Origin: an uncultured Anaerolineales bacterium
GTDB taxonomy: Bacteria > Chloroflexota > Anaerolineae > Anaerolineales > UBA11858
Length of the DNA stretch: 64,000 nucleotides
NCBI GenBank assembly: GCA_964582965.1
Contig: CAZOUN010000004.1
Coordinates: 923 to 64,922 of the forward strand
Direction of reading: 5' to 3'
Shown here: positions 2,536 through 58,279 of the stretch, piece by piece
How positions within the stretch are numbered: the first letter of the stretch is position 1
Layout: each line of letters begins with the position of its first letter
Notes under the pieces: model-generated
What the model was told of the DNA's origin: nothing
The model's input: the letters and a program-made list of their open reading frames with translations, nothing else
Databases searched by the model: none
Program-made: the position numbers and the translations under genes

Positions 2536-3618
2536 ATGGCAAAAAACAAAGTACGAACAGCGATAATTGGTGTGGGTAATTGTGCATCAGCCTTGGTTCA
2601 AGGGGTGCATTTTTACCAGAATGCAGCAGAAAACGAAAACATCCCAGGTTTAATGAATCCCGTTCTTGGTGGGTACCATATCAAGGATATCGAATTTTCT
2701 GCAGCTATTGATATCAACGTCCTTAAAGTTGGAAAGGACCTCAGTGAAGCTATCTGGGAAAAACCTAATAACACATATAAATTTTCGGAAGTTCCTTTCT
2801 TAAACATCCCGGTGAGCAGAGGGATGACCCACGATGGATTGGGAACGTACTTAAAAGATTTTATTCAAAAAGCTCCCGGACCTACCGATGATATCGTTAA
2901 GATCCTCAAAGATACCGGAACTGATGTAGTGATCAATTTTCTGCCCGTTGGCTCAGAGATGGCAACAAAATGGTATGTAGAACAAATTCTGGAAGCCGGA
3001 TGTGCATTTGTGAATGGTATACCGGTTTTTATTGCTACATCCGAATACTGGAGTAAACGATTCAGGGATAAAGGACTACCAATTATTGGGGATGATATTA
3101 AAAGCCAGGTTGGGGCGACGATAGTCCATCGAGTTCTTACGAATTTAATGCAGGATCGGGGAGTAAAACTTGAGCGGACATATCAATTGAATTATGGCGG
3201 AAATATGGATTTTTATAATATGCTTGACCGGAAACGCCTGGAATCCAAAAAGATTTCCAAAACCCAGGCTGTATCTAGTCAGATAAATTATGATCTAGAA
3301 GAAGACAATATCCATATTGGCCCAAGCGATTATGTTCCCTGGCTGGAAGACCGAAAATGGGCCAATATCCGGCTCGAGGGTACTGCTTTTGGGGATGTTC
3401 CATTAAATATTGAATTAAAGATGGAAGTCTGGGACTCACCGAACTCTGCAGGCGTTATGATAGATGCAGTCCGTTGTGCAAAAATCGGCCTGGACAGAGG
3501 CATATCAGGACCTCTTGAAGAACCTTCCTCATATTTTATGAAGTCGCCTCCTGTTCAGTATCCTGACGATATAGCGAAAATCAAGATTCAGGAGTTCATT
3601 GCAGGTAAAGCTAAATAA
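2536..3618 (+). CDS. ino1: myo-inositol-1-phosphate synthase
   Basis: N-terminal NAD-binding IIGVGNCAS, plus [24 protein letters not shown] and VWDSPNSAG motifs. Confidence 0.95.
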
Positions 3619-22978: not shown

Positions 22979-23350
22979 TTGCCTGGATCACGATCCAAAC
23001 AAATGGTTGAAGAATTGAAAAAATTGCAAATATCATCACCTGATATTCAGGCATCCGCAGTAGTAAGTGTTGATGGATTGATCATTGCCTCAGCGCTGCC
23101 GGGAAGTGTTGAAGAGGATCGTGTATCTGCTATGTCCGCCGCTATGCTGTCATTGGGGGAGAGAATATCTATAGAACTCCGGCGAGGTGGATTGGATCAG
23201 GTATATATCAGGGGAGATAATGGTTATGTTATGCTGACTTCAGTGGGGCAAGAGGCGGTACTAACTGTTATGGCAAGTGTCAATGCAAAACTTGGGCTGA
23301 TATTCCTGGACATAAAAAGGACCGCCGAAAAGTTGTCTGAATTGATCTGA
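22979..23350 (+). CDS. Roadblock/LC7 (MglB-like) protein
   Basis: SAVVSVDGLIIAS...DRVSAMSAAML.LGE...LDQVYI.G..GYV pattern; TTG start after AGGGAG. Confidence 0.9.
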   Translation: MPGSRSKQMVEELKKLQISSPDIQASAVVSVDGLIIASALPGSVEEDRVSAMSAAMLSLGERISIELRRGGLDQVYIRGDNGYVMLTSVGQEAVLTVMASVNAKLGLIFLDIKRTAEKLSELI

Positions 23351-23366
23351 TAGGTTTGTCTAGACC

Positions 23367-24002
23367 ATGAAAATTATTCCTGATAGTGGATATTTCAATA
23401 CAAATAAATTTGCCAGAATTTATCTCGAATCAATAAGGGAAATTACTGGCGATAATGGATTAAAAGCAATTCTGAATTTTGCGCATCTGCCGGATTTATG
23501 CGAAACATTGCCACCGGATAATTTGGAAAGAGCGTTTGATTTTTCCTATTTTTCTATGATTAATCAGTCACTGGAAGAGATATATGGAGAAAGAGGAGGA
23601 AGAGGGTTATCTTTGCGAATTGGGAGAACCACTTTTGATGATGTGCTAAAGGATTATGGAGCGCTAGCTGGTGTAGGAGATTTAGCATTTCGATTACTGC
23701 CGCTGGAAAAAAAGATCAGATTTGGACTAAATGCAATGGCCAGGATCTTCTCTGAAAAAAGCGATCAAAAAACTTCAATTGAAGAGACGAATGATCATTT
23801 TTTGTATCTAGTTGAGCGCTGCCCAGTTTGTTGGGGAAGAATTAATGAGGACCACCCCGTCTGTTATTATGTTGTGGGTTTGCTGAAAGAAGGGCTGCAT
23901 TGGGTTTCTGGGGGGAAGGAATTCAGCATAACGGAAACCCGTTGTATTGCCCGTGGAGATGAAATTTGTGAGTTCAGAATATTAAAATCACCAATAGAGT
24001 GA
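23367..24002 (+). CDS. V4R (4-vinyl reductase-like) domain protein
   Basis: CPVC...CYY..GLL...ETRCIARGDEICEF V4R signature. Confidence 0.88.
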   Translation: MKIIPDSGYFNTNKFARIYLESIREITGDNGLKAILNFAHLPDLCETLPPDNLERAFDFSYFSMINQSLEEIYGERGGRGLSLRIGRTTFDDVLKDYGALAGVGDLAFRLLPLEKKIRFGLNAMARIFSEKSDQKTSIEETNDHFLYLVERCPVCWGRINEDHPVCYYVVGLLKEGLHWVSGGKEFSITETRCIARGDEICEFRILKSPIE

Positions 24003-24022
24003 GACATGAAACAGGCAAAGCT

Positions 24023-24745
24023 ATGATTAAATCGATAGTTATCCCCACTTATAACGAAAAAGATAATTTACCGCTGATCGTTGCTTCCTTATTTGAACTT
24101 AATATTCCGGATTTACACATCTTGATTGTTGACGATAATAGCCCGGATGGTACTGGGAATATAGCAGAGGGCCTTAAACAGCAATATTCAGATAAATTAT
24201 CCGTTTTGCATAGAGAAGGGAAAAAAGGTCTCGGTACGGCATATTTGGAAGGATTTAAATACTGTCTTGATCGAGGTGCAGACCAGATAGTGCAAATGGA
24301 TGCTGATTTTTCCCATAACCCGAAGAAAGTAATCAATCTCCTGGATGGGCTAAAAGAAAATGATATGGTTTTAGGATCCAGATACATTTCCGGTGGAAAA
24401 CTGGATGATAGATGGGCTGCCTGGCGTAAAGGGTTATCATCGTTTGGAAATTTCTATACCAGGATGATTCTAAGGATGCCTATTCTCGATGTGACTGGTG
24501 GATTTCGAGCCTGGAGGAGGAATACCTTGCTGGGAATTCCTTTGGAACGCGTAAGGTCCCAGGGTTATGCATTTCAGGTTGAGATGGCATATATCACTCA
24601 TTTATCCGGGTATTCAATCAAAGAGATACCAATTTACTTTGCAGATCGAACAAGGGGAGATTCAAAGATGTCCTTGAATATTCAATTAGAAGCGGCTCGT
24701 CGTGTTTGGTCGATTTTATACGAATACCGGGATCTTAAAAAGTAA
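24023..24745 (+). CDS. Polyprenol-monophosphomannose synthase-like GT2
   Basis: IVIPTYNE, VDDNSPDGT, GLGTAY, QMDADFSH, DVTGGFR and GYAFQVE motifs. ATG 24023 preferred over GTG 23999. Confidence 0.9.
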   Translation: MIKSIVIPTYNEKDNLPLIVASLFELNIPDLHILIVDDNSPDGTGNIAEGLKQQYSDKLSVLHREGKKGLGTAYLEGFKYCLDRGADQIVQMDADFSHNPKKVINLLDGLKENDMVLGSRYISGGKLDDRWAAWRKGLSSFGNFYTRMILRMPILDVTGGFRAWRRNTLLGIPLERVRSQGYAFQVEMAYITHLSGYSIKEIPIYFADRTRGDSKMSLNIQLEAARRVWSILYEYRDLKK

Positions 24746-24751
24746 CCAACA

Positions 24752-24788
24752 AAAAAACAGGCCGCGATATTAATTTGGCCTGTTTTTT
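24752..24788. terminator. Bidirectional intrinsic terminator between convergent operons
   Basis: AAAAAACAGGCC-N13-GGCCTGTTTTTT. Confidence 0.85.
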
Positions 24789-24810
24789 GATTTAAGTAGT
24801 CGGTTCTTAT

Positions 24811-25344
24811 CTAATCAGAGTCCATTCTCTCCAGGATGCTGTAAAGAAGTTCAAGAAGTGCATTTTTGACCGATTCTTTATCGGTGGCTGTGCATGGAAG
24901 AAGCTTGACGTCGGATGCAAGCCGAAGAGCTATGCGCATGTCTTCGGGATCCCAGGCATCTTCTAAATCCTGTTTATTGGCGGTCACTACATAGGGAGTT
25001 GGTGCATAAGCCCGGAAAGTTTCAAGAATGCGCCGGGCTTCTCTGAATGTTTCAGGCCTAGAACTGTCCACCATAACGACAAAGCCTAACATACCTTCGG
25101 AAAGTATTTCCCACATGAAATCAAATCGTTTCTGGCCGGGAGTTCCAAATAGGTATAAAACGAGATCGTCATCAACTGTGATCCTGCCAAAATCCATAGC
25201 AACCGTTGTGGTCTCTTTGATCCTTTCTGATTCAGAAGAAATTTTGCGTTCGGTGGCAACCACGTCAATTTCACTCACGGTTTGAATGAATTGAGTTTTA
25301 CCAGAGCTAAATGGACCGGTGACAACCATTTTAACGGTTTGCAT
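24811..25344 (-). CDS. MglA-like small GTPase
   Basis: G1 GPFSSGKT, G2 TTTVAMDF, G3 GTPGQ, G4 NKQD. Confidence 0.9.
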   Translation of the reverse strand: MQTVKMVVTGPFSSGKTQFIQTVSEIDVVATERKISSESERIKETTTVAMDFGRITVDDDLVLYLFGTPGQKRFDFMWEILSEGMLGFVVMVDSSRPETFREARRILETFRAYAPTPYVVTANKQDLEDAWDPEDMRIALRLASDVKLLPCTATDKESVKNALLELLYSILERMDSD

Positions 25345-25384
25345 AGGGTACTTCCCTTTGGGGCGATAATAACAAATTCAAAAC

Positions 25385-26203
25385 TTATAAAGAGCGTATC
25401 CGGGTGATAAGCCTGTTAACGAGAGATTTCTGTTGTTCCGCTCCTTCTACGGGGAGAGTAGGAACTTTTGGAGTAGGTGGAGCAACACCTTCTGGGCGAA
25501 TGATCTCAACCAGACCAGCCTGGATCAGACTGTAGACAATCCTTCTAAATTCAAAGTCTTCGAGTTTTGTGGTTTTGGCAATTTGTTTCATGGAATTTTT
25601 AGGATTTATGAATGAAACAACTCGCCATTCTTTAACGCTAAGATTGACATTCCGGATATTTGTTCCAGGAGTTTCGGTGAATTTTAAAGCCATATCGAGG
25701 CTGGGAAGTTCATCTTGCAGGCGTTCCATTTCTTGCAGTTGGCGAGAGCCTTCGATAATGATATTTTCGAGGCTTATTAAAAGAGAAATCTTGTCAGCAG
25801 CCGGTTCAAGATTATTTTCGAAATGAAAAATACCTTCTTCCCAGGAGAAGAGGTCGTTGGCTGTGGAAACAAATTCGTTTTTTAGGCTGTTAAGGATTTC
25901 GTCCTGGGTGACATAATTGGAATTAATTAGCATCAACCCCAATTCTTTATCGCCGATATTATTAGCTTTGTCTTTGATAACCTGATATTGTTTGTCGGTA
26001 AGTTTTTCGCTGCGGAGTAGAACAGAAGCCAGTCCATGGTCTTTTTTGTTGTTTTGCGCATAGCTTAACTTGCCAGCATCAAACGAGATCGATGCGGCTT
26101 TTTCAGGACCGTGGACCTGAAGGGTGCCAGTCTTTTTTGCCAGACTGATTAGATTTAAAAGCTGAGAAAACGAAAAGTCTCTCAGATTCCCTTTTAATGC
26201 CAT
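25385..26203 (-). CDS. DUF4388 (PatA N-terminal-like) domain protein
   Basis: ALKGNLRDFSFSQLLNLISLAKKTGTL start and FSWEEGIFHF motif. Confidence 0.85.
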   Translation of the reverse strand: MALKGNLRDFSFSQLLNLISLAKKTGTLQVHGPEKAASISFDAGKLSYAQNNKKDHGLASVLLRSEKLTDKQYQVIKDKANNIGDKELGLMLINSNYVTQDEILNSLKNEFVSTANDLFSWEEGIFHFENNLEPAADKISLLISLENIIIEGSRQLQEMERLQDELPSLDMALKFTETPGTNIRNVNLSVKEWRVVSFINPKNSMKQIAKTTKLEDFEFRRIVYSLIQAGLVEIIRPEGVAPPTPKVPTLPVEGAEQQKSLVNRLITRIRSL

Positions 26204-29093: not shown

Positions 29094-30566
29094 CTACTGT
29101 TTGTCAAGATTTAATTCATAGATCTTTACATGGCCTTTCCTGCCTTTGATAATAATTGAATCTAGTTTCGTCAAATTGTAATCATTGGATACAGCTTTAT
29201 AGACTTCATCACCAACCATAATACTGTTCGGCCCGCCAAATGGATTCATTCCTTTAGCGACGTTGACAAGATCCCCGAGGACAGTGAACTCAACTCTTTC
29301 GCTTGTGCCAACGTAACCAACTACCGCCCGGCCTGCTTTGACGCTGAGGCGGAGATTGATCGGTTGATCAAACTCGCTTGAAAGGGATTTCATACGTTTC
29401 AGAATGGCAACCCCGGATTTTACTGCCAGCTTTTTGTGATTTTGTTTCTCGTCGGACATACCAAAGACAGCCAGTACCCCGTCACCCTGATATCTGACCA
29501 CGCCGCTATCACCAAATATAATATCAGTTACACCAAGATAATAGTTATTGAGCATTTTGCCAAACTCTTGAGCCCCCATGGATTCTGCAAGCCCGGTTGA
29601 GTCAGTTATGTCTGCAAATAGGACAGAGACTTTCCTCTCTTTTAGACCGGGCAGGGTTCCGTGAAGATCATAATCTCGGAGTACGTAATCAACTTCTTGG
29701 GGTGAAACAAACCGTTGGAACATTTGCCGTAGACTTTGTTCTTGCTGAACCTTGTTGAGTAAATTAACTCGTTGAATTGTAAGTGCGGCTTGATGGCTGA
29801 TGGCAATTGCGACCTGGAGATCTGTATTTGTGAAGGGGAGGGAATCAGGTCTGGATTTATACATGTAGATTAAGCCAATGATCTCATTTTCAGACATGAT
29901 AGGAACGCATAGGGCGCTTTTGATTTTTAGCAGAGTAGCGCTTTCACTATCCTGAGCTGCATCACTCTGAGCCATATCCGGAATCACTACAGCAGATTTT
30001 TCCGTAATAGCTGATTGGGCGAGGGTTGACGGGAACCCAAAATCTTCCATTTCGTCAAACTGTTCTTTGAGGATCACTTTGCATTTGTCAGCGCCCATCG
30101 CTTGTTTCATCAGGAATGCGATTTCCTCGAGACAGTCGGCAAGGTTCATGACCGTGTTGAGGCGTTCTGAAATTTGGTACATCAGAACTGTGTGGTGGTC
30201 GAGAGCTTCGAGCAAGCGCTCGCGGGTAAACTTTTGGGGACCGCGTACCGTATCAAGCGGTTCGTCAGTGCCGCGAATGACAACGTTAATAGTTGAACTG
30301 CCTATGCGGATCATATCCAGATGTTGAAGCCTGTATGTATACGAGAGGCGGCGGCGGTTGATATAGGTTCCGTTAGTGCTTGTGAGATCTTGCAAAAGAG
30401 CCGTATCGGTACTGCGATTGTAATCAATTCTGGCATGCTGTCTTGATGCGGAAGGCTCGGCAATAACAATGTCATTGTTGGGGTGCCTGCCGATGGTATT
30501 TCCCCCTGGTTTCAGGGTGTATTTCTGAGGTTCCTTACCTGGCACACGAATTGTTAACAACCACAT
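29094..30566 (-). CDS. FHA-GAF-class III nucleotidyl cyclase
   Basis: FHA motifs GRHPNND/SRQH/STNGT, GAF LCVPI..IGLIY, cyclase LFADI..ST, QGDG and FTVLGD.VN. Confidence 0.88.
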   Translation of the reverse strand: MWLLTIRVPGKEPQKYTLKPGGNTIGRHPNNDIVIAEPSASRQHARIDYNRSTDTALLQDLTSTNGTYINRRRLSYTYRLQHLDMIRIGSSTINVVIRGTDEPLDTVRGPQKFTRERLLEALDHHTVLMYQISERLNTVMNLADCLEEIAFLMKQAMGADKCKVILKEQFDEMEDFGFPSTLAQSAITEKSAVVIPDMAQSDAAQDSESATLLKIKSALCVPIMSENEIIGLIYMYKSRPDSLPFTNTDLQVAIAISHQAALTIQRVNLLNKVQQEQSLRQMFQRFVSPQEVDYVLRDYDLHGTLPGLKERKVSVLFADITDSTGLAESMGAQEFGKMLNNYYLGVTDIIFGDSGVVRYQGDGVLAVFGMSDEKQNHKKLAVKSGVAILKRMKSLSSEFDQPINLRLSVKAGRAVVGYVGTSERVEFTVLGDLVNVAKGMNPFGGPNSIMVGDEVYKAVSNDYNLTKLDSIIIKGRKGHVKIYELNLDKQ

Positions 30567-30659: not shown

Positions 30660-30935
30660 TTATGATATTTGCTCGAAATGCTCAACAGCAAATACCATGA
30701 TTGTCGCACTCTTTTTGAATGGATTAACGCTGGGGGTGCATTCTTGATTGATAAGCTCAATGACTTTATCTACGTCGACTGAATCAACGCCTGCGATTAA
30801 TGTACTGGTGCCGCGTCGTAATAAGCCACCCGTTGAATCAATTAATGTCAGAGGGTGGCCCGAGTCATGCATCGCTCGCATGACAGAATCAGATTCGGCG
30901 TCTTCTAGAATGGCGAAAATCATCTTTTTATCCAT
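30660..30935 (-). CDS. DarA/PstA-like (DUF970) PII-like protein, copy 2
   Basis: MIFAIL...TLIDSTGGLLRRGTSTLIAGV...SATIMVF..EHFEQ, matching the YaaQ/DarA pattern. Confidence 0.85.
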   Translation of the reverse strand: MDKKMIFAILEDAESDSVMRAMHDSGHPLTLIDSTGGLLRRGTSTLIAGVDSVDVDKVIELINQECTPSVNPFKKSATIMVFAVEHFEQIS

Positions 30936-30936
30936 A

Positions 30937-31209
30937 TCACACTCTCTCGAAATCTTTAGCAGGCATGACGTAGATCGTTACTCGTGCATGAGCTGCATCT
31001 GTAGGCGCTGAGGGGGGAACAAGATTTCTGATCAATTCCAAGGCGTTTTCCACTTTGTCGTCATCAGCAACAGCCATTAATGTAGTAGTACCTCCAGACA
31101 AAAGGCCAGCCGTTGAAGCGAATTTTGTAACCCTGTAATCTGCTTCCAGTAATTCAGCTGAAACAAGTTCACTAATATTTGTAGGCATGATAGCAAGAAT
31201 CATTTTCAT
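30937..31209 (-). CDS. DarA/PstA-like (DUF970) PII-like protein, copy 1
   Basis: MKMILAIM...YRVTKFASTAGLLSGGTTTLM...VTIYVMP..DFERV. Confidence 0.85.
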   Translation of the reverse strand: MKMILAIMPTNISELVSAELLEADYRVTKFASTAGLLSGGTTTLMAVADDDKVENALELIRNLVPPSAPTDAAHARVTIYVMPAKDFERV

Positions 31210-31211
31210 AG

Positions 31212-33239
31212 TTATAGTTCCTCGTAGCGCTCAATATCAAGACTGAATATTGTCGCTCCTTCGTGGGTGAGTCCCGATGTCGGTTTAGGATCTTTGGAAT
31301 CAATCTTGAGCTTTGAGACATTCGCAGATTCCAGTAATTTTTTAATCTCTAAACGTTTCCCTCTTGGGTGACCAATTAAAACAGTCGCGTTCCGATGGCC
31401 CAGGAATCCACCAGTGCTTGCTATATGAGTCATCGGATAACCATATGGTTCAAGAAGTGCGGATATTTTTTGAAAATCTTTCTCCTGAATGACAATGGTC
31501 ATTAAGACTTCAATATTTTTGATAGTGCGCATCCTCAAAATCTGAACCAGCTCTGATTGATTTTCCATTAATGCGCTATCAACTTCGTGAACGAGACTAG
31601 AGAAAATTTCTTCAGAGATCCGGCCGTCCCGGAGTAATGATCGCAAGGTTGCTCTTTCGCTGGTTAGTACGGCTTTAATTGCTGACTCCAGTTCTTTGGT
31701 TTCAACGTTAGGATGAGCTCGCATGGTTTTGGCAGCAGTGTCAGCCAAGGTGGCTGCGCGAGAAGTGATAGGTTTGGAGAGAACATTCCAGACATGCTTT
31801 GACAGCAATCCATCCTTATACATTGTCTCAAGTTGTATAAAAGCAGTTCTAGCCATTACTAGTCTCGCATTTAAGCTTTCGTATTCTTCCTGGGCAGGAT
31901 TTTTTTCTATTAAACCCATACGGGCAATAAAAGGCTTCATGGTTAATCCCTGAACAAGTAGGGTAAAGAGAACAACACCAAATGCCATTGATTTGATTAT
32001 TGTTCCTTGTTCGCCAAGGCTGGCGGGTAAGCTGAGAGCAAGCGCAAGAGAGATAGCTCCTCTTAATCCACCCCAATATAAAACGTGTTTATAGCGGCGG
32101 GGGATACCAGGGCCGATCCATGACAATCCGTATATGGAAGCAGCTCTAGCTACCAGAACAGCTAGGATCGCCCAGAGGACTGCTTTCCAATCAGTTAATA
32201 AAATGTTCAAATCAATTTGGAGGCCAATCAGGAGAAATACAAATGAATTGGCTAAAAATGCAGCATATTCCCAAAAATTATATACCAAGATGCGAGTTGT
32301 TGGAGTCATTCGTTTCGGTCCAAGATTACCGCTGACAATTCCCGCAGCGACAACTGCTAAAACACCACTAACGTGAAATTGTTCTGCAATAATATATGAG
32401 CCGAATGCCAGTACAGTGGTTAGGGTAGTTTCAATCAACGAATTGTCGATTACGCTGATCGCTAAAGAGATAATTAAACCTAGGAGCACGCCAATAATTA
32501 ACCCTCCACCAGAGACGACGATAAAATTCAGTACACTCTCGCCGAGGTTGAAATATCCCGTGACTGCGATCGTAACCATCATATTGAAGAGAACTATAGC
32601 CGTGCCATCATTAAATAGGCTTTCTCCTTCAAGAAGCATTTGCAGGCGATGAGGTACTCCAAGGGAACGGAAAAGTGCTACGACTGCGACAGGATCAGTT
32701 GCTGCGATCAACGAGCCAAATAATAAGGCTGTTGTTAGGGAAAAATCGGTTCCCCAATAAAGAACACCCCCAACTAAAAATGTAGTTAATAAAACACCGG
32801 GGATTGCCAGGCTTAGAATGGGAGTCAGGTCTTTAAAAAGATCCTTGGCCTTGACCTGAAATGCAGCCTCGAATATCAATGGCGGTACAAGTAATCCTAA
32901 AAAGAGTTCCGGACTGACATTGAGGTTAATTTGGCCAATTAATGCCAAGACAAGGCCAATCACGACCAGCCCAGCAGTGTAGGGTACCCTGAGCCTCTCT
33001 GTGATAATGCCCACCAATGAGGAAATCAATAGTAAGCCAATCACGATTTCGATTATGAGTATGATATTAGATTCTTCCTCAGCTTCGTCCTCGGCGAGGG
33101 GGCCTGGATGAGACTGTCGGAAAGTTATTGCGTCTGAAGCAGAAACATAAGTGAAATTGAGGCCAGCAGCCAAGATGACAACTGTTAAGGCAATCAGGGA
33201 TAAAAGCAAGACATTTTTTATGTAAGATATGTTTTTCAT
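31212..33239 (-). CDS. CPA1 (NhaP/NhaK-like) cation/H+ antiporter with fused C-terminal DarA-like domain
   Basis: ATDPVAV, GESLFNDG and GLRGAISLALAL CPA1 motifs; helical cytoplasmic tail; last ~100 aa (about 31212-31520) contain THIASTGGFLGHRNATVLIG...EGATIFSLDIERYEEL. Confidence 0.9.
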   Translation of the reverse strand: MKNISYIKNVLLLSLIALTVVILAAGLNFTYVSASDAITFRQSHPGPLAEDEAEEESNIILIIEIVIGLLLISSLVGIITERLRVPYTAGLVVIGLVLALIGQINLNVSPELFLGLLVPPLIFEAAFQVKAKDLFKDLTPILSLAIPGVLLTTFLVGGVLYWGTDFSLTTALLFGSLIAATDPVAVVALFRSLGVPHRLQMLLEGESLFNDGTAIVLFNMMVTIAVTGYFNLGESVLNFIVVSGGGLIIGVLLGLIISLAISVIDNSLIETTLTTVLAFGSYIIAEQFHVSGVLAVVAAGIVSGNLGPKRMTPTTRILVYNFWEYAAFLANSFVFLLIGLQIDLNILLTDWKAVLWAILAVLVARAASIYGLSWIGPGIPRRYKHVLYWGGLRGAISLALALSLPASLGEQGTIIKSMAFGVVLFTLLVQGLTMKPFIARMGLIEKNPAQEEYESLNARLVMARTAFIQLETMYKDGLLSKHVWNVLSKPITSRAATLADTAAKTMRAHPNVETKELESAIKAVLTSERATLRSLLRDGRISEEIFSSLVHEVDSALMENQSELVQILRMRTIKNIEVLMTIVIQEKDFQKISALLEPYGYPMTHIASTGGFLGHRNATVLIGHPRGKRLEIKKLLESANVSKLKIDSKDPKPTSGLTHEGATIFSLDIERYEEL

Positions 33240-35002
33240 TGGTTTTTCAAATATCTATAAAATCCAGATGAATAGAGATTGATCCATTTGTTATTCCATT
33301 TTGAAGCGCTGTAGAAATCCTCAAGAAATAAAATTTCCTCTTGGTCTGTCATTACGCGAGGGTGAGCGTTGTCGATAAACTGCAGCGGAATTAGCCTGGT
33401 ATTGATATATCTGCCATCATAGAAATAATGGAAATCAATAAAAGCTTTGTCTTTGTTGAGGTGTACTTCTGGTTCGTTTATTGCCAGATACCATTGATCA
33501 AAAAACAAATTTCCCAAACCATAATGAATGAAATTTGATCCGGAAAGCTCAATTCCCTGGGGGTGGTGAGCCTGGCTGCCGCTGACTATTGAAGCACCTG
33601 CTTCTGAGAGCCGGCGGAAATCGTACATCTGAATTGCTATGGGTAGAAAGCTATCTACTTCTTCGTGCTGCATGGTAGCAATCACAATGTAACCCTCATT
33701 TGAAAGGCGAGTTATTTTCGGGATCATCCATTCAAAATCACATCTGGCTGCGCCAGGAACAGTCTCAGATGCGGTGGCGTATCCCTCGTGAATTTTAGCA
33801 TTACAACCAATAAAAACGAGTTTGTTCCCATTATGGACGATGACGACAGGATTGAGGCCATCCAGTAAATTTGAGCCACCGCCGTAGGTAATAAGATTGT
33901 GTTGATCGTATAAAACTAAAGAGTGAAACATGGCTTCGGGACCAAAATCCGCAAAATGATCACCACTCAGTTCAACTATATCGGTACCTATTGATTCTAG
34001 CAATTCAATATAGGAATCGCTCGAACAGAAAAAAAGGTCATCCTGAATAGAATCGGGTATAGGACAATCATCTGCAAAGGGAACTTCGTTGCTGATATGG
34101 GTAATATCAGCTGATAGAAGCAAATCCCTAATATCATCTGCTGGATAGAGTACTCCTTTTTTCTCAATGATCGAAGCCGTGCTTCTAACAAGTGCAGTAA
34201 CACCAGTCAAAACAACGGAGGTGAGTTTTGAGGAGTCGAAATTAGAAATATTAGTCATCTCAAAAGGGTGGAACAATGAGGGATTTGGGGTGGAAAGGTA
34301 GATCGGAAATGTCAAAGGATAGAGACCGTCGTCAATTGAAGAAGTTAGCGGGTCTAGATTATCAACGGAAATAACCTTGTACGATGGTTCCAACTGATCG
34401 AAGGGAATGATAGCTAATGTAGTTGTGTTATACCAAATATTTTCTAATATCTGATCAGGCTCAGTAATTATGATCCCTTCTTCAGCGGGTGCGCCCCAGT
34501 GTTGAGATAGGTGATTTGTTGTTTCTTCACTAACTAGCAGCCTGTCATAATCAGGTATTTCATTGGAAACGGATTTCCAAATAGCAGTGAGATCAGACGA
34601 TTGGATATTTTTTAGATTGGAATAAAAGGGGGCTACAACTACATAGGTCCACGAACCAATAAGCATATCGGACCGTGCTGACGAGAAAGTCATCAGAGCT
34701 TGATCTTTGGATGTTGTTATATTGAATTCTGCTTGTTGAGAAATCATATTTCTTGCGGAATCAGGAAGTGCAGGGTCCACCCAGGAAAAATAAGGAGCCG
34801 GAATCAATTGCGGAGTAAATGAAAGCGTCAAGGTAGATTCGGGGGTTGGCTCGAGATATACAGGGGTATGTGTGTCGGGAATGAAAACTTCCGGTTGAGG
34901 AGAGCAACCAGATAAAAAGAAAACCATAATTAACAGAGAAAGAAAGATAAATAGGAAGTTTATATTGGTGAAATTAGAAGATTTATTAAGGTTGATGATC
35001 AT
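33236..35002 (-). CDS. Lipoprotein with a CapA/PGA_cap (metallophosphoesterase-fold) domain
   Basis: Lipobox FLSGC, Pro/Thr-rich linker, HISNE, GDHF.D, GSQAHHPQ and YGLGNLFFD motifs; ATGA overlap with the antiporter start. Confidence 0.8.
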   Translation of the reverse strand: MIINLNKSSNFTNINFLFIFLSLLIMVFFLSGCSPQPEVFIPDTHTPVYLEPTPESTLTLSFTPQLIPAPYFSWVDPALPDSARNMISQQAEFNITTSKDQALMTFSSARSDMLIGSWTYVVVAPFYSNLKNIQSSDLTAIWKSVSNEIPDYDRLLVSEETTNHLSQHWGAPAEEGIIITEPDQILENIWYNTTTLAIIPFDQLEPSYKVISVDNLDPLTSSIDDGLYPLTFPIYLSTPNPSLFHPFEMTNISNFDSSKLTSVVLTGVTALVRSTASIIEKKGVLYPADDIRDLLLSADITHISNEVPFADDCPIPDSIQDDLFFCSSDSYIELLESIGTDIVELSGDHFADFGPEAMFHSLVLYDQHNLITYGGGSNLLDGLNPVVIVHNGNKLVFIGCNAKIHEGYATASETVPGAARCDFEWMIPKITRLSNEGYIVIATMQHEEVDSFLPIAIQMYDFRRLSEAGASIVSGSQAHHPQGIELSGSNFIHYGLGNLFFDQWYLAINEPEVHLNKDKAFIDFHYFYDGRYINTRLIPLQFIDNAHPRVMTDQEEILFLEDFYSASKWNNKWINLYSSGFYRYLKNQ

Positions 35003-37546: not shown

Positions 37547-40036
37547 TTAATTGCAAAGAATTTTCAAAATAGCCTGTGTCTCCTGTTTGCCCCCCGACCC
37601 CATTTCTCCGCCTGGCCCGACACAAGCCGGGCAGCCCGTATCGCAGGGGCAGTTATCTACTAAATCTTTAGCTGACAATAATAACTCTTGAAGGCGGTCG
37701 TATAGTGATTTACTGAATCCGATTCCTGCGGGTATCTGCTCGTGGATCAAAACAATGGGGCGATTGTCACCAAAAGGGGATTGGAAATCAGCAAATAGGC
37801 CCAAATCTCCCGAATCACACATCAACAATAGTGGCGCAAGTCCGTGGAGGATATGTCCCAGTCCTCGGATTCCGCTGTTTACCCGGACGATGGCTTCGGC
37901 GCGCTGGTGACAGCGCGGGCATAAACTGATCAGGTTTGAGAGCTGATTTGCATCCTCCAGGGATGAAAAACTACGAAGAGGTTGCTTGTGGTGTATGTGT
38001 AAAACTTCAGAAGGATTGTTTTTTTTACACATCTGGCATCTATATTGATCGCGTTTGAGAACGATATTCCTGATCTGGTCCCATCCAGTTCCGTAATTGT
38101 TTGGACTACTGGACCATAGGCCCTGGTTCCTTATCTGGGATTCTGTATCTTCCGAAAGGGTTAACCAAATACCAGCTGACCGCAATGTCGTTGATGGTAA
38201 ATCCAGGGTATCTCTGCTTAAGACTTCAAAAGGACGCCACTTGATCTTCTTAAAACCTGTTACTTTGGTAGTGAGTTGGATCTCTCCCAAATATTTCATG
38301 CCACCCGGAATAGGATCTTCTTCATGACGTTCTAGTTCCAGATACTTGGATTGTTTTTCCGCTTCAGTGTAGTAATCGACAGAAGTTGGTTGGAGAAATG
38401 CGCGAAATTGTTCCAGGTCTAAATCCCTTACTATATACGGATTCCCAGCATGTAAGTACACTGCTCCAGGATGCACCATCCAATAGGCGCTTTCGATATC
38501 TACTTGACCAATTGAAATTGGTTTTGTGTCCTTCTGCTCAGCTATTAATGTAATTTGCTGAGCGGAGGCATTTCTCAAAGAGATCAGAGCTGCTGGATAA
38601 TCTTCGGCCATCCAGAAATATTTATTATTTGTTTTGTGGATTTTACCGAGAGTTGAAAGTGCATCGAGCAATTCTTCTGTTTCTGATATTGTGAAAGATC
38701 CAAATTTGTTTGATTTTGAAAAGGGTAGTTCGTAAGCTGCGCATTGAATATGAGCAAGGGCTATCAGAAGATTATTGGCATCAATTAATCCGCTTTCAGG
38801 GTTGTTGTTGAATAAATAATCAGGATGCAGAGCAAGGTATTGATCAATAGGGGAAGAAGATGTAACAAGGATAGAAAGAGATGGTTTATCAGATCTTCCT
38901 GACCTACCAGCTTGCTGCCATGTGCCAGCTATTGTTCCAGGATAACCAGCAAGAATTGCTGCATCCAATCCGCCGATATCAATACCCAGTTCAAGGGCAT
39001 TGGTTGCTGTAATACCACGAATTTTTCCGCTTCGTAGGCCAGCTTCAATACGTCTGCGTTCTTGGGATAAATAACCGCTTCTATAGGACTGGACAGGAAA
39101 CGGAGCCAGGATGTCTTTTTCTTTTAATCCCCGAAGCATAAACTCAATTGATCTTCTGGAACGGCCAAAAATGATAGTTTGATTTCCGCTTGCTATTAGG
39201 TCTGAAGACAAGCGGATGGTTTCGTTTTGCATACTTGCACGAAGGCCAAGTTTTGGATCAATTATTGGAGGGTTGTAGATCAAAAAACTTTTCTTCCCAC
39301 GCGATGATGCATCATCTTTGATGAGTATAAGATCCTCTTCAATAAGGGAGGTAGCCAGAGATAATGGATTTCCGATGGTCGCAGATGTAAGAATGAATTG
39401 AGGAGAGGATCCGTAATGGGCAGTGATCCTTTTTAGACGTCTGATCACATTGGCAACGTGGGATCCAAATACTCCCCGGTAAATATGCATTTCGTCAAGG
39501 ATTATAAAATCGAGATTGGAAAAAAATTCAGCCCATTGTATATGATAGGGAAGGATCCCAAGGTGAAGCATATCGGGATTACTAACCACGATCCGTGCAT
39601 TCTGTCGAATATTGGGACGCGCATTTGTAGGCGTATCACCATCATAAGAAGATGATAGGACATCTGGAAAACGTTTTAACCAGTTTAGCTGATCCTGGGC
39701 TAATGCTTTAGTCGGGAATAATAATAGAGAACGGCTAAGGCCGTTTTTGAGGAAACGAGACAGGATCGGCAATTGGTAGGCCAAAGATTTTCCTGATGCG
39801 GTACCCGTTGCTAAAACAACATGCTGTCCGGATTCAACAGCATCCCATATCGCTCTTTGATGTGAGTATAAAGACGAGATATTCATATCGCCAAGAATAT
39901 CTATAATCCTTTGATCGAGACCATCTGGAAAATCCTCGAATTCAGGTTTTCTTTTTGGGATCTCTTGCCAGGCGGCGATATTTGGCGCTATTGCAGGATC
40001 TGTGTTCCAGCGTGCGAGAACTTTATTTATTGACAT
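37547..40036 (-). CDS. Hrq1/MrfA(YprA)-type SF2 DEAH helicase with DUF1998 and an inserted HNH domain
   Basis: GTASGKS, DEMH, SAT, LELGIDIG and QQAGRSGR helicase motifs; terminal CPCDTGCPACVG; insert CQMC...HIHH...N...CPRCH. Confidence 0.9.
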   Translation of the reverse strand: MSINKVLARWNTDPAIAPNIAAWQEIPKRKPEFEDFPDGLDQRIIDILGDMNISSLYSHQRAIWDAVESGQHVVLATGTASGKSLAYQLPILSRFLKNGLSRSLLLFPTKALAQDQLNWLKRFPDVLSSSYDGDTPTNARPNIRQNARIVVSNPDMLHLGILPYHIQWAEFFSNLDFIILDEMHIYRGVFGSHVANVIRRLKRITAHYGSSPQFILTSATIGNPLSLATSLIEEDLILIKDDASSRGKKSFLIYNPPIIDPKLGLRASMQNETIRLSSDLIASGNQTIIFGRSRRSIEFMLRGLKEKDILAPFPVQSYRSGYLSQERRRIEAGLRSGKIRGITATNALELGIDIGGLDAAILAGYPGTIAGTWQQAGRSGRSDKPSLSILVTSSSPIDQYLALHPDYLFNNNPESGLIDANNLLIALAHIQCAAYELPFSKSNKFGSFTISETEELLDALSTLGKIHKTNNKYFWMAEDYPAALISLRNASAQQITLIAEQKDTKPISIGQVDIESAYWMVHPGAVYLHAGNPYIVRDLDLEQFRAFLQPTSVDYYTEAEKQSKYLELERHEEDPIPGGMKYLGEIQLTTKVTGFKKIKWRPFEVLSRDTLDLPSTTLRSAGIWLTLSEDTESQIRNQGLWSSSPNNYGTGWDQIRNIVLKRDQYRCQMCKKNNPSEVLHIHHKQPLRSFSSLEDANQLSNLISLCPRCHQRAEAIVRVNSGIRGLGHILHGLAPLLLMCDSGDLGLFADFQSPFGDNRPIVLIHEQIPAGIGFSKSLYDRLQELLLSAKDLVDNCPCDTGCPACVGPGGEMGSGGKQETQAILKILCN

Positions 40037-44862: not shown

Positions 44863-45162
44863 TCAGCGGGGTTTCTTGATGTGTAAAATTACTTTTCCTA
44901 ATATATCGGAGTAGGGGATTGGACCCAATTTATGGCTGCTGATGCTATTCTCGTGGATTCCGATTACATTCAATGTTTTGGATGCGGGGTTATTCGTAAG
45001 AACGCGTTTTATCAATTGTCCATATTTGGGATGCTCGAATACTACTGTAGCACCCGGTTTAACGGCTTGCGTTATTGAACGGTTAGTTCTAACTATGACA
45101 TAGTCGCCTGGTAAAAAAAATGGTGACAGACTGTTGCCTGTCACCTTGATGATTTTAAGCAT
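44863..45162 (-). CDS. sodX: NiSOD maturation protease (S26-like)
   Basis: V.GNSLSP...GD and LIKRV Ser/Lys dyad; TAATG overlap with sodN. Confidence 0.85.
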   Translation of the reverse strand: MLKIIKVTGNSLSPFFLPGDYVIVRTNRSITQAVKPGATVVFEHPKYGQLIKRVLTNNPASKTLNVIGIHENSISSHKLGPIPYSDILGKVILHIKKPR

Positions 45163-45662
45163 TAGAGAACCGGGTAGACCATCTCCAGTCCCGGAGCATA
45201 AGGAGCTTTTGCTTTCTTGATTTTGATATCTTTGAGTGACCAGAATATTTCAGCAAACTGATTGATCGCCTCTACAAAAGCGAGCCCATTTTCTCTGGTG
45301 GCTGTTTGGCGGCAATTTGATCCTAATTGCATGATCTTGTGAACGAGACCAGGAAGTTCTGGATATTTTTCAACGTGGGCGTCTTTGATAAAATCTCCCC
45401 AGATGACACGTATTTCGTGTTTGGCTTTTTCGGCGTGGTCTTCTTTTACAGCAATATAGCGGGACATTGAGTTTTGGAATTCCACTTTGGATTTATCATC
45501 AACATCGGCCAAATTGGCCATCAGATCCATCATGCGTACAACAGTTAGGGCATTGATCTGTGCTGTGATCGGATCATAAATTCCACAAGGAACATCACAA
45601 TGAGCCTGTGCTTTAGGGAAAGGGCGAAAATGGTCAATAGTCTGGATAAGTTTATAAAACAT
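45162..45662 (-). CDS. sodN: Nickel superoxide dismutase precursor
   Basis: 20-aa leader ending AQA, then Ni-hook HCDVPCGIYDP (His codon at 45600-45602). Confidence 0.95.
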   Translation of the reverse strand: MFYKLIQTIDHFRPFPKAQAHCDVPCGIYDPITAQINALTVVRMMDLMANLADVDDKSKVEFQNSMSRYIAVKEDHAEKAKHEIRVIWGDFIKDAHVEKYPELPGLVHKIMQLGSNCRQTATRENGLAFVEAINQFAEIFWSLKDIKIKKAKAPYAPGLEMVYPVL

Positions 45663-56519: not shown

Positions 56520-57209
56520 TCAGGTTGAAAGGCCCTGGGTGAACGGTGGATTTTCAAGCCGAAAGCCTTGTCCGCGAACAGTTATTATGTAGTCATGATC
56601 AGGGTCAAATTCAATAATTCGCTCTCTTAGTCTCCTTACCAGGGCGTCAAGAGCCTGATCTGTAACGCCTAGAGATTGTTGGGATCCCCAAACACTATTG
56701 ATGACTTCGGAACGAGATAGAACCCGACCCCTAGATTCCGATAACAAAGAAAGAAAGCTGAATTGCAGTGCAGATAATGGAGGGTTCAATTCTCGGTTCA
56801 TGATCCATGTTCTGCAAGATTCTTTTTCGAGTCTTATTCGGCGAAAATATGAGATTACAGAGGATTCGAAATCTCCAGGAGCAAGAGGTACCGTTGCATC
56901 TTGGCCGAGGAAAATAAATTCCTGAGCAAGGGCAATTTGGATTACGTCGCCATCTTCGAGGGCGATCGTGTCAGTGACGGGTTTTCCATTGTGGAAGGTA
57001 CCATTTTTGCTGCCAAGGTCTTCCAGGGACGGGATATCGTCAATAATAGTAATTCTGGCATGCTCTCTGGATACTTGCTGATTTGTGATCGCGATATCAC
57101 AAGCTCCGGTTCGTCCTATGATAAGCTGATTGGCTAAAGACCAGCGATACCCATTTAAGGGGCCACCTTGACCTACCAATACCGGTTGAGCATGATTTCG
57201 ATCTGACAT
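56520..57209 (-). CDS. FHA domain plus OmpR-type winged-helix transcriptional regulator
   Basis: IGR...VSREH...SKNGT FHA motifs; VWG...LDALVRRLR.RI...ITVRGQGFRL wHTH. Start taken as 57209. Confidence 0.88.
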   Translation of the reverse strand: MSDRNHAQPVLVGQGGPLNGYRWSLANQLIIGRTGACDIAITNQQVSREHARITIIDDIPSLEDLGSKNGTFHNGKPVTDTIALEDGDVIQIALAQEFIFLGQDATVPLAPGDFESSVISYFRRIRLEKESCRTWIMNRELNPPLSALQFSFLSLLSESRGRVLSRSEVINSVWGSQQSLGVTDQALDALVRRLRERIIEFDPDHDYIITVRGQGFRLENPPFTQGLST

Positions 57210-57289
57210 AAGATGTATTTCAATAATTGAAAATCCAATTGGATTATAATGCAATTGAACGATCATTAAGTAGAGATAATGAACTAATA

Positions 57290-58279
57290 ATGAAAAAAAA
57301 TTTAAACAAAGGCGATGTAATAAAAGATCGCTATAAAATCAATGACGTCATAGGGCAAGGGGGAATGGGATGCGTTTATCTTGCTGACGATTTACGGTTG
57401 GCTGGAAGGCAGTGTGCTTTAAAAGCCGTTCATTACGAGCAAAATTTTCCCGAAGATGTCATCAACCAAACTAGAGATCAATTCAAACGTGAAGCAACTG
57501 TGCTGGCGATGCTTGACCACCCTAATTTACCCAAAGTATCTGATTTTTTCTCAGATGAGGAAAAAGATTACCTTGTTATGGATTATGTACCCGGTAAGGA
57601 TTTGCGAACTTTGATGCAAGAGGAAAGGAAAAAAGGAAAATTCCTGGCTGAAAGAGAAGTATTGAATTGGGCGAGCCAAATTGCAGATGCGTTGATCTAT
57701 CTCCACAATCAATCACCAGTAATTCTACACAGGGATATTAAACCCAGCAATATCAAACTTACGCCAACCGGGATCATAAAATTAGTGGATTTTGGATTAG
57801 TAAAATTATTGGTTTCAGGAGAGAATACGATCACTGTCGTTCATGGTCATGGATCGGCTTATTACACTCCGCTGGAACAATATGGTGGAGATACGGGACA
57901 TACTGATCCAAGGAGTGATGTTTATTCATTTGGCTCAACGCTATATCACCTGCTTACGAATAAGGCACCCCTGGAGGCGAGGCAGAGGTTTTTGGAATCT
58001 GCAGAAGATCAGCTAATTAGTGAATATAACAAGAAAATTAGTCCCAGAACTGAGCGGGCGATTGCTCTGGCAATGAATGTTCATCCTGATAAACGGATTC
58101 AAAGTGTTGGGGAATTTAAGGAATCGTTATTGGGGGACTGGAATCCGAGACAAAAACCGAATGGTGCCATGCCTGCACCCAAAATTCGAGAATTGATAAA
58201 GGCTACTGAAGAACAGGTATTAGCTTGGATAGCGTTGTTGATGTTTATGATCAGCATCGTAGCAACCTTGACGAAATAA
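57290..58279 (+). CDS. Hanks-type Ser/Thr protein kinase with C-terminal membrane anchor
   Basis: GQGGMG, ALK, HRDIKPSN, DFG and SDVYSFG motifs; terminal hydrophobic helix. Start taken as 57290. Confidence 0.93.
   Translation: MKKNLNKGDVIKDRYKINDVIGQGGMGCVYLADDLRLAGRQCALKAVHYEQNFPEDVINQTRDQFKREATVLAMLDHPNLPKVSDFFSDEEKDYLVMDYVPGKDLRTLMQEERKKGKFLAEREVLNWASQIADALIYLHNQSPVILHRDIKPSNIKLTPTGIIKLVDFGLVKLLVSGENTITVVHGHGSAYYTPLEQYGGDTGHTDPRSDVYSFGSTLYHLLTNKAPLEARQRFLESAEDQLISEYNKKISPRTERAIALAMNVHPDKRIQSVGEFKESLLGDWNPRQKPNGAMPAPKIRELIKATEEQVLAWIALLMFMISIVATLTK

Follow-up and report, generated by a model that had tools for sequence, protein, structure and literature searches.

The operon described here lies in a stretch of 64,000 nucleotides (the window) from an uncultured Anaerolineales bacterium (assembly GCA_964582965.1, contig CAZOUN010000004.1, positions 923 to 64,922). 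It encodes an antiporter of the CPA1 family with a C-terminal DarA/PstA-like domain (gene F), which is followed by two free paralogues of this domain (genes A and B). The fusion is real and conserved, and it is apparently undescribed: our literature search retrieved no paper describing a fusion of CPA1 with a DUF970/PII-like domain or mixed trimers of DarA/PstA. The link between DarA-like domain pairs and the same CPA1 subfamily recurs in fused, unfused and tandem form, and the two half-sites of the pocket for cyclic di-AMP (c-di-AMP) have degenerated complementarily between a long-loop class (L) and a short-loop class (S) of the domain. Judged from these comparisons, it is very probable that the DarA-like module regulates the antiporter.

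All three genes are located on the minus strand. Gene F (33239..31212) encodes 675 amino acids and comprises the transmembrane domain of the exchanger (residues 71-438; 31926..33029), a cytosolic helical tail (residues 448-570; 31530..31898) and, joined to the exchanger by this tail, the L-class sensor domain (residues 577-675; 31215..31511). The free paralogue A (30937..31209) codes for 90 amino acids and B (30660..30935), a member of the short-loop class, for 91. The narrow spacing of 2 and 1 nt given in the preliminary description is confirmed by the junctions themselves, which read TAA-CT-ATG from the stop of F to the start of A and TGA-T-ATG from the stop of A to the start of B. No terminator-like site was found between F, A and B, and the first strong hairpin, a GC-rich terminator-like structure of 10 bp at 29068-29045, is located after the cyclase gene downstream of B. 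The sequence motifs quoted in the preliminary description are all present, namely STGGFLGHRNATVLIG...GATIF...YEEL in F and STAGLLSGGTTT and STGGLLRRGTST in the free copies.

The domain assignments are supported by several profiles. The exchanger part of F matches PF00999 (Na_H_Exchanger; residues 71-438, E 5.9e-78) and scores 305.3 bits with the NCBIfam profile TIGR00831 (a_cpa1), above the cut-off of 279.6, with the profile reaching residue 556. The transport motifs of CPA1 proteins, TDP in transmembrane helix 4 (181-183) and ND in helix 5 (210-211), are intact, and 59 homologues carry D182, P183, N210 and D211 without variation. The nearest relatives of the exchanger with solved structures are plant SOS1 and animal NHE, and the alignment with SOS1 spans the helical tail up to residue 561. 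For the C-terminal domain of F, PF06153 (CdAMP_rec) gives a match of 33.4 bits over residues 579-637, and the free copies A and B reach 50.6 bits (E 2.5e-13) and 58.3 bits (E 1e-15), all above the gathering score of 27; the alignment of A and B ends at profile position 62-65 of 109. Three adjacent significant matches to one small family exclude chance, and both the DarA/PstA assignment and the paralogy of the three domains are thereby borne out. Neither the antiporter nor A, B or the neighbouring genes gave a Pfam or NCBIfam match to RCK_C or TrkA_C domains.

Structure prediction is in accordance with these matches. In the AlphaFold2 model of full-length F (mean predicted local distance difference test, pLDDT, 69.5) the tail consists of four long helices, whose 10-residue block means range from 81 to 90 over residues 451-560 and are lower at the ends. 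Beyond the tail, the full-length model and a model of the last 100 residues both exhibit a domain of the type beta-alpha-beta-beta-alpha-[disordered loop]-beta. A Foldseek search with the latter model returned PstA, DarA or PEPE_1480 structures for each of the top 15 PDB matches (4rww, 4d3h, 4wk1, 4rle and 3m05) at query-normalised TM-scores of 0.58-0.69, a fold check that covers F only. Classical PII proteins, SbtB and CPII follow at lower ranks, including SbtB with bound cAMP or AMP among the weaker matches. The fused domain hence has the proposed PII-like fold, with PstA/DarA as the best match.

Of the 120 proteins most similar to F (59-100% identity), 118 combine PF00999 with PF06153 and the remaining two are truncated; all named sources among them are Anaerolineales or Chloroflexota metagenome-assembled genomes. 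The same operon including A and B is present in two relatives with 70% and 59% identity to F. For the survey across genomes, one genome per species of the GTDB taxonomy was scanned with the C-terminal 235 residues of F, which yielded 33 loci, 31 from Chloroflexota and two from Firmicutes. A metagenome scan confirmed 452 further places, of which the best 80 were kept; the survey covers about 120 related loci. Open reading frames (ORFs) were called in the fetched loci (numbered with an L), PII-like domains were identified with a hidden Markov model and the exchanger with phmmer. What had been a single case in the preliminary description is accordingly a large conserved family of CPA1-DUF970 fusions in Anaerolineae.

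When 291 domains were clustered on 88 core columns, four classes resulted. Class L, with a long B-loop, holds every fused domain together with all free copies of 108-116 amino acids. Class S, with a short B-loop, holds B of the window, all partners that occur singly at other loci, and the full-length DarA pairs of Firmicutes. Class A is a separate cluster confined to loci of the window type, and class T contains both domains of a separate family of tandem proteins. The most frequent architecture is that of the window, an antiporter with a fused L domain followed by A and S (about 30 loci). The fused antiporter also occurs with S (about 18 loci), with S, L and S (about 14), with L and S (about 5) and without any adjacent free copy (7), and on one contig the order is antiporter-L, A, antiporter-L and S. 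An unfused antiporter is followed by L and S at about 15-18 loci, and at about 10 loci the L-S pair is present and the exchanger is absent from the flank. Based on the domain clustering and this tally, B is the ordinary short partner of the family, while A is an innovation of the window clade. Both have been kept across the roughly 30 window-type loci, whose fused domains share only about 40% identity.

Some individual loci deviate from the common architectures. At L016 (4669-9099; the contig is also represented by L055) the two antiporters are interleaved with the free copies, and the second is shorter (616 amino acids). The fusions of L020-L022 comprise 617 amino acids, have Ile in place of Asn41 and lack an adjacent paralogue; they may represent a ligand-blind branch or have distant partners. 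In protein P0091 (732 amino acids) the gene call runs from the antiporter into A through a garbled sensor domain, probably reflecting a frameshift or an assembly error.

Fusion is only one form of the association between the domain and the antiporter. In L079, an unfused exchanger shares 56% identity with residues 73-561 of F and thus belongs to the same subfamily including the helical tail. Furthermore, about 40 clusters of proteins from Chloroflexota with 206-260 amino acids and two DarA-like domains in tandem were detected when 1.84 billion representative proteins were searched exhaustively with a profile. A Na_H_Exchanger gene is located within two genes of such a tandem protein in three of the seven sampled neighbourhoods, and the exchanger of L037 is 54% identical to F. 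The Rosetta-stone link between DarA-like domains and the antiporter that had been proposed from the single fusion is hence substantiated by the conserved fusion and by unfused and tandem neighbours of the same CPA1 subfamily.

Additional observations concern the surroundings of these pairs. In the tandem family (L036-L041; P0127-P0168, P0280-P0392) the two domains are joined by a linker rich in Pro, Ala and Ser, and three tandem proteins have neighbours with a B12-binding domain. A different, short Na_H_Exchanger (406-419 amino acids) is encoded in the complete Anaerolineales genome CP129480.1 (L122, 4377-6612) and in L036 (2927-5693), followed by an ORF of about 120 amino acids with a weak P-II match and then by an L-S pair or a tandem protein. 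This ORF is a possible third PII-like component. Its identity as a detached helical tail was rejected, as the 122-aa ORF of L122 displays no BLASTP similarity to the tail of the window antiporter and is 41% identical to the 117-aa ORF of L036. In four Anaerolinea-type genomes (L029-L032; e.g. L030, 3581-6587) a free L-S pair is located in an operon behind a glycoside hydrolase gene, classified by Pfam in L030 and L031 as mannosylglycerate-hydrolase-like (MGH1-like) or trehalase-like, which points to a putative role in compatible-solute turnover. The two Firmicute loci, L033 (5995-6665, Dethiothermospora) and L034 (1223-1892, a metagenome-assembled genome of Thermohalobacteraceae), contain a tandem-duplicated full-length darA in the canonical tmk-darA-holB-yaaT locus and no antiporter; mixed trimers might also occur there.

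The second line of evidence is provided by the ligand pocket. In PstA of Staphylococcus aureus (SaPstA) it is formed between two subunits, with R26, T28, G47 and Q108 contributed by one monomer (half A) and the GGFL T-loop, N41 and F99 by the other (half B) (PMC4316997). The structure of Listeria monocytogenes PstA (LmPstA) adds T97 and G94 of the neighbouring subunit (PMC4475381). The exchanges T28A and GGFL-to-AAAA abolish c-di-AMP binding in SaPstA and N41A weakens it (PMC4316997), and for N41A of LmPstA a dissociation constant of about 140 uM has been determined (PMC4475381). We mapped these positions on distinct sequences. Positions 94-109 rest on a MAFFT alignment, in which the C-terminal register relative to F99 is gap-free in F, A, B and DarA; the residue statistics are raw counts without correction for phylogeny.

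The distribution of the two halves is uneven. Class L (n=124) retains half B, with F36 in 100%, N41 in 91-98% and F99 in 96-100% of the sequences, and has lost much of half A: R or K is found at position 26 in 0-2%, T28 in 35-87% (Val being the commonest residue in free L copies), and position 108 is mostly Glu. Class S of other loci (n=75) exhibits the reverse pattern, with R26 in 91%, T28 and G47 in 100% and Q108 in 97% (Q, H, R or K in 99%) and N41 in only 24%. Among the 42 S domains that directly follow a free L copy, R26 is universal (42/42) and N41 is absent (0/42). Class A (n=30) also conserves half A (R26 and T28 100%, R/K108 93%, G47 63%) and has given up half B (N41 0%, F36 40%, F99 3%, with Tyr instead). 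The B copies (n=28) have T28 and Q108 in 100% and G47 in 89% of cases, no R26 at all, and N41, F36 and F99 in 43%, 43% and 29%, respectively. Both halves are kept by both domains of the tandem proteins and also by the two Firmicute pairs except for R/K26, a position that is dispensable as shown by LmPstA. The half-site pattern recurs in several architecture classes with domains that are only 30-40% identical.

The window reproduces this pattern. F has P26, T28 (T604), the GGFL T-loop (G610-G611-F612-L613), N41 (N617), G47 (G623), T97 (T663), F99 (F665) and E108 (E674). A has R26, T28, AGLL (A34, L36), T41, V47, Y99 and R108, and B has P26, T28, GGLL (L36), T41, G47, M99 and Q108. None of the three chains thus unites both half-sites: R26 and Q108 are missing from F, and N41 and F36 from both free copies; F99 is likewise missing from B and replaced by Tyr in A. 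The view that the full set of pocket residues survives in the fused copy alone therefore holds for the GGFL/N41 half but not for the other one, in which A has R26 and R108, and B has Q108 but P26. The B-loop differs as well, with a median length of 26 residues in L, 10 in A and 8 in S, so that the loop of A and B is about 16-18 residues shorter. Positions 94-96, where the long B-loop of about 30 residues of DarA/PstA ends in a GGA kink, read E-G-A in F, A-R-V in A and K-S-A in B, so that the window proteins do not share this feature. The B-loop of free L copies (e.g. L079, 3445-3783) is strongly conserved (CRQRIEYxTLPLEGSPMPMPxPVPVTVGGATVF), whereas that of Firmicute PstA is variable, and it may represent a docking surface for the antiporter tail. 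In the fused domains of the window clade the loop is shorter and variable.

Based on the half-site pattern and the SaPstA and LmPstA mutants, neither a ring of three L domains nor a ring of three S domains would have a complete pocket, while the interface between L and S would. In the window, the contact of F (half B) with A (half A) is the only interface with two good halves, and this favours the ring order F to A to B, with a single live pocket. This ring is also favoured because the conserved half A of protein A has no other live partner, and the decay of half B in protein B is expected if it faces the dead half A of F (P26, E108). One mixed trimer per protomer would moreover remove the mismatch between a dimeric CPA1 antiporter and a trimeric PII protein. 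CPA1 exchangers are dimeric, and the solved relatives of the exchanger have been deposited with two chains per entry.

We propose that each protomer of the antiporter would carry a single mixed PII-like trimer assembled from F, A and B. Its sole complete pocket would combine the T-loop half of F (GGFL, N41, T97, F99) with the half of A that consists of R26, T28 and R108, and with the subunits in the order F-A-B around the ring, the other two interfaces, A-B and B-F, would be non-functional. Binding of a nucleotide, most likely c-di-AMP, would change the position of the module with respect to the helical tail and alter antiport, and the changed antiport would adjust K+ or Na+ efflux and with it the osmotic and potassium balance of the cell. 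The chances of this full mechanism, a mixed PII-like trimer sensor with one composite pocket and nucleotide-regulated antiport, appear slightly better than even. That the trimer is an obligate heteromer, with one L subunit tethered per CPA1 protomer, two S subunits and a single c-di-AMP pocket composed of split half-sites, is a more tentative proposal whose probability falls somewhat short of one half. The preliminary description had envisaged a 1:1:1 heterotrimer with three non-equivalent pockets. A mixed oligomer receives indirect support from the complementary loss of half-sites, but the 1:1:1 ratio is not general, and a strict version of it as a family rule was rejected on the basis of the variable number of free copies. 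Instead of three non-equivalent pockets, the pattern leads us to expect a single functional pocket beside two dead or vestigial ones.

A number of observations weigh against a mixed trimer with a single c-di-AMP pocket, and they concern its composition as well as its ligand. All solved PstA/DarA proteins are homotrimeric (PMC4316997, PMC4475381), and the fused domains might trimerise among themselves or stay monomeric, with A and B forming homotrimers of their own that influence the antiporter in trans, stack onto an F trimer or have other targets. The number of free copies per locus varies from 0 to 3, which makes 1:1:1 anything but universal, and the fusion occurs without an adjacent free copy at seven loci. 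L and S genes are usually equal in number and three tandem two-domain chains would give two trimers, so that both also fit stacked homotrimers. A ring of three L domains, however, would pair an intact half B with a half A that is devoid of R26, often of T28, and carries Glu108, and a ring of three S domains would have an intact half A but no N41; in SaPstA, T28 is essential for binding and N41 contributes to it (PMC4316997). A trimer of F conflicts with the dimeric state of CPA1, and the conserved half A of protein A beside its own dead half B is hard to explain if A only meets itself. We consider separate homotrimers rather unlikely for these reasons. In the proposed F-A pocket, A of the window contributes V47 at a position where Gly is usual, and class A as a whole keeps G47 in only 63% of the sequences. 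The conserved T41 and Y99 of A could indicate that the site is not dead but binds a new ligand. The AlphaFold2 models are of moderate quality (pLDDT 65-70; 65 for the last 100 residues), with a poor C-terminal third and last strand. A and B could also be decaying duplicates without a role, only the fused domain being of importance: in the window F36 and N41 are gone from both, F99 is gone from B, and A carries Tyr99 and no longer has G34 and G47. Yet they are intact ORFs that have been retained in about 30 loci despite the divergence of the fused domains, T28 is invariant in both, R26 of A and Q108 of B are invariant within their own classes, and both are still translationally coupled to the antiporter, judging from the gene junctions. 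Decay is accordingly a highly improbable explanation.

The second group of objections concerns c-di-AMP. SbtB-type PII proteins bind several adenine nucleotides, and the same architecture could serve ATP, ADP, AMP, cAMP or another nucleotide, e.g. the product of the neighbouring cyclase. The gene for this FHA-GAF-class III nucleotide cyclase (29094..30566, minus strand; assigned by Pfam) is located 93 nt downstream of B and is syntenic in L001-L010 wherever downstream sequence exists, i.e. except for the truncated L003 and L005. F, A and B belong to PF06153 yet are not DarA equivalogs, as documented by scores of 32.0, 54.0 and 52.6 bits with NF058593, all far under its cut-off of 140 bits. The motif DGA...GxRHR of diadenylate cyclases (DAC) was absent from the six-frame translation of the window and from all ORFs of the fetched loci, a result that covers those sequences only. 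An Rfam search at gathering scores revealed no c-di-AMP riboswitch in the window or in 32 related loci, a Pfam survey of about 50 window genes detected nothing tied to c-di-AMP metabolism, and our literature search for DAC in Chloroflexi found nothing usable. The weaker Foldseek matches to SbtB with cAMP or AMP also fit a different ligand. On the other hand, F keeps every half B side-chain contact that is specific to c-di-AMP in PstA, including the short GGFL T-loop; the long T-loop of classical PII proteins would clash with the second adenine of c-di-AMP (PMC4475381). The cyclase, RelA and PGA_cap genes are moreover absent from L011-L035, many of which still have DarA-like partners, and the synteny of the window neighbours is therefore indicative of clade history rather than of a family-wide link. 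Overall, a ligand other than c-di-AMP seems unlikely. For the DarA/PstA of Firmicutes, the partner is called unknown in reviews of 2023 and 2026 (PMC10636490, PMC13508791), in agreement with the preliminary description, which is partly outdated by a preprint of July 2026, in which PstA of S. aureus is reported to interact weakly with GlnR and to form a repressor complex with GlnR and GlnA (PMC13484208). Because GlnR is proposed there as the partner of PstA, the extension of the antiporter link to Firmicutes is uncertain, and DarA/PstA may do something else in these bacteria.

The proposed mixed trimer on the antiporter can be placed between several known systems. With the DarA/PstA proteins (YaaQ of Bacillus subtilis and PstA of S. 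aureus and L. monocytogenes) the window proteins share PF06153, and F in addition shares the fold, the short GGFL T-loop, N41, G47, T97 and F99. The known representatives are free-standing homotrimers of about 109 amino acids per chain with both half-sites on each chain, whereas here one copy is fused and the half-sites are split between classes. CpaA and KhtT/KhtU of Firmicutes are likewise cation/proton antiporters under the control of a cytosolic nucleotide-binding module, and the K+ and osmotic logic would match (PMC10636490). They bind c-di-AMP via RCK_C domains, in contrast to the PII-like module on an a_cpa1-type CPA1 transporter described here, which has no detectable RCK or TrkA domain. 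GlnK-AmtB and SbtB-SbtA are examples of a PII-superfamily gene that is co-encoded with a transporter, as in the window, where the action on the transporter is presumed. In these systems a trimer with long T-loops sits on a trimer, while the arrangement suggested here combines a dimeric transporter family with a short T-loop, one tethered subunit and a mixed trimer. Plant SOS1/NHX7 and sperm SLC9C1, the best relatives of the exchanger among solved structures, have the same order of CPA1 exchanger, helical tail and nucleotide-sensing domain, but their sensor is a cyclic nucleotide-binding domain on the same chain, and the PII-like domain of F appears to need two extra subunits. Mixed trimers of PII paralogues have a precedent in GlnB/GlnK of Escherichia coli, which are facultative and in which every subunit has a full site; the half-site pattern of the window would imply an obligate heteromer instead.

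The upstream neighbour of F is a PGA_cap (CapA-like) gene of 588 amino acids (33236..35002, minus strand; PF09587, E 2.6e-29) that shares a 4-nt overlap with the start of F. It is present in L001-L010 and, like the cyclase gene, in none of L011-L035. PGA_cap, the FHA-GAF-cyclase and RelA/SpoT were rejected as family-wide partners, since their synteny is confined to the close clade L001-L010, and the PGA_cap gene is probably not part of the sensor. Its synteny may reflect a link of poly-gamma-glutamate to glutamate and K+ balance or plain synteny; a gamma-PGA hydrolase gene is located upstream in L002. Other regions of the window contain a cluster of Roadblock/LC7, V4R, GT2, Ras-like small GTPase and DUF4388/PatA_N genes (22979-26203) that resembles an MglA/MglB-type polarity module and reappears in parts beside the operon in L001 (13090-14028) and L002 (11576-12976). 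At 56520-58279 a gene for a protein with FHA and OmpR-type DNA-binding domains overlaps a Ser/Thr protein kinase gene, and together with the FHA-cyclase this pair suggests phospho-threonine signalling in this genome. Further genes encode a myo-inositol-1-phosphate synthase (2536-3618, plus strand) with a possible role in osmolyte synthesis, a nickel superoxide dismutase (45162-45662, minus strand) and a DEAD-HNH-MZB (MrfA-like) helicase (37547-40036, minus strand).

Since 2015 DarA/PstA has been known as a c-di-AMP receptor, but there is no agreement on its function. Its fusion to an antiporter in the window, together with the adjacency of the same antiporter in sister lineages, suggests a ready hypothesis on the target of this branch of the family. 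The complementary loss of half-site residues also points to a sensor that would function solely as a mixed ring with a single live pocket, which has not been described for PII-type proteins in the literature searched. If the proposed arrangement is true, the PII superfamily would gain its first obligately mixed member and the DarA/PstA-type receptors their first direct transporter target. Both ideas can be checked with three small soluble proteins and one ligand. If they are correct, the control of ion balance by c-di-AMP would extend to Chloroflexota via a mechanism independent of RCK domains, and the tails of CPA1 antiporters would become a candidate class of partners for free DarA proteins elsewhere.

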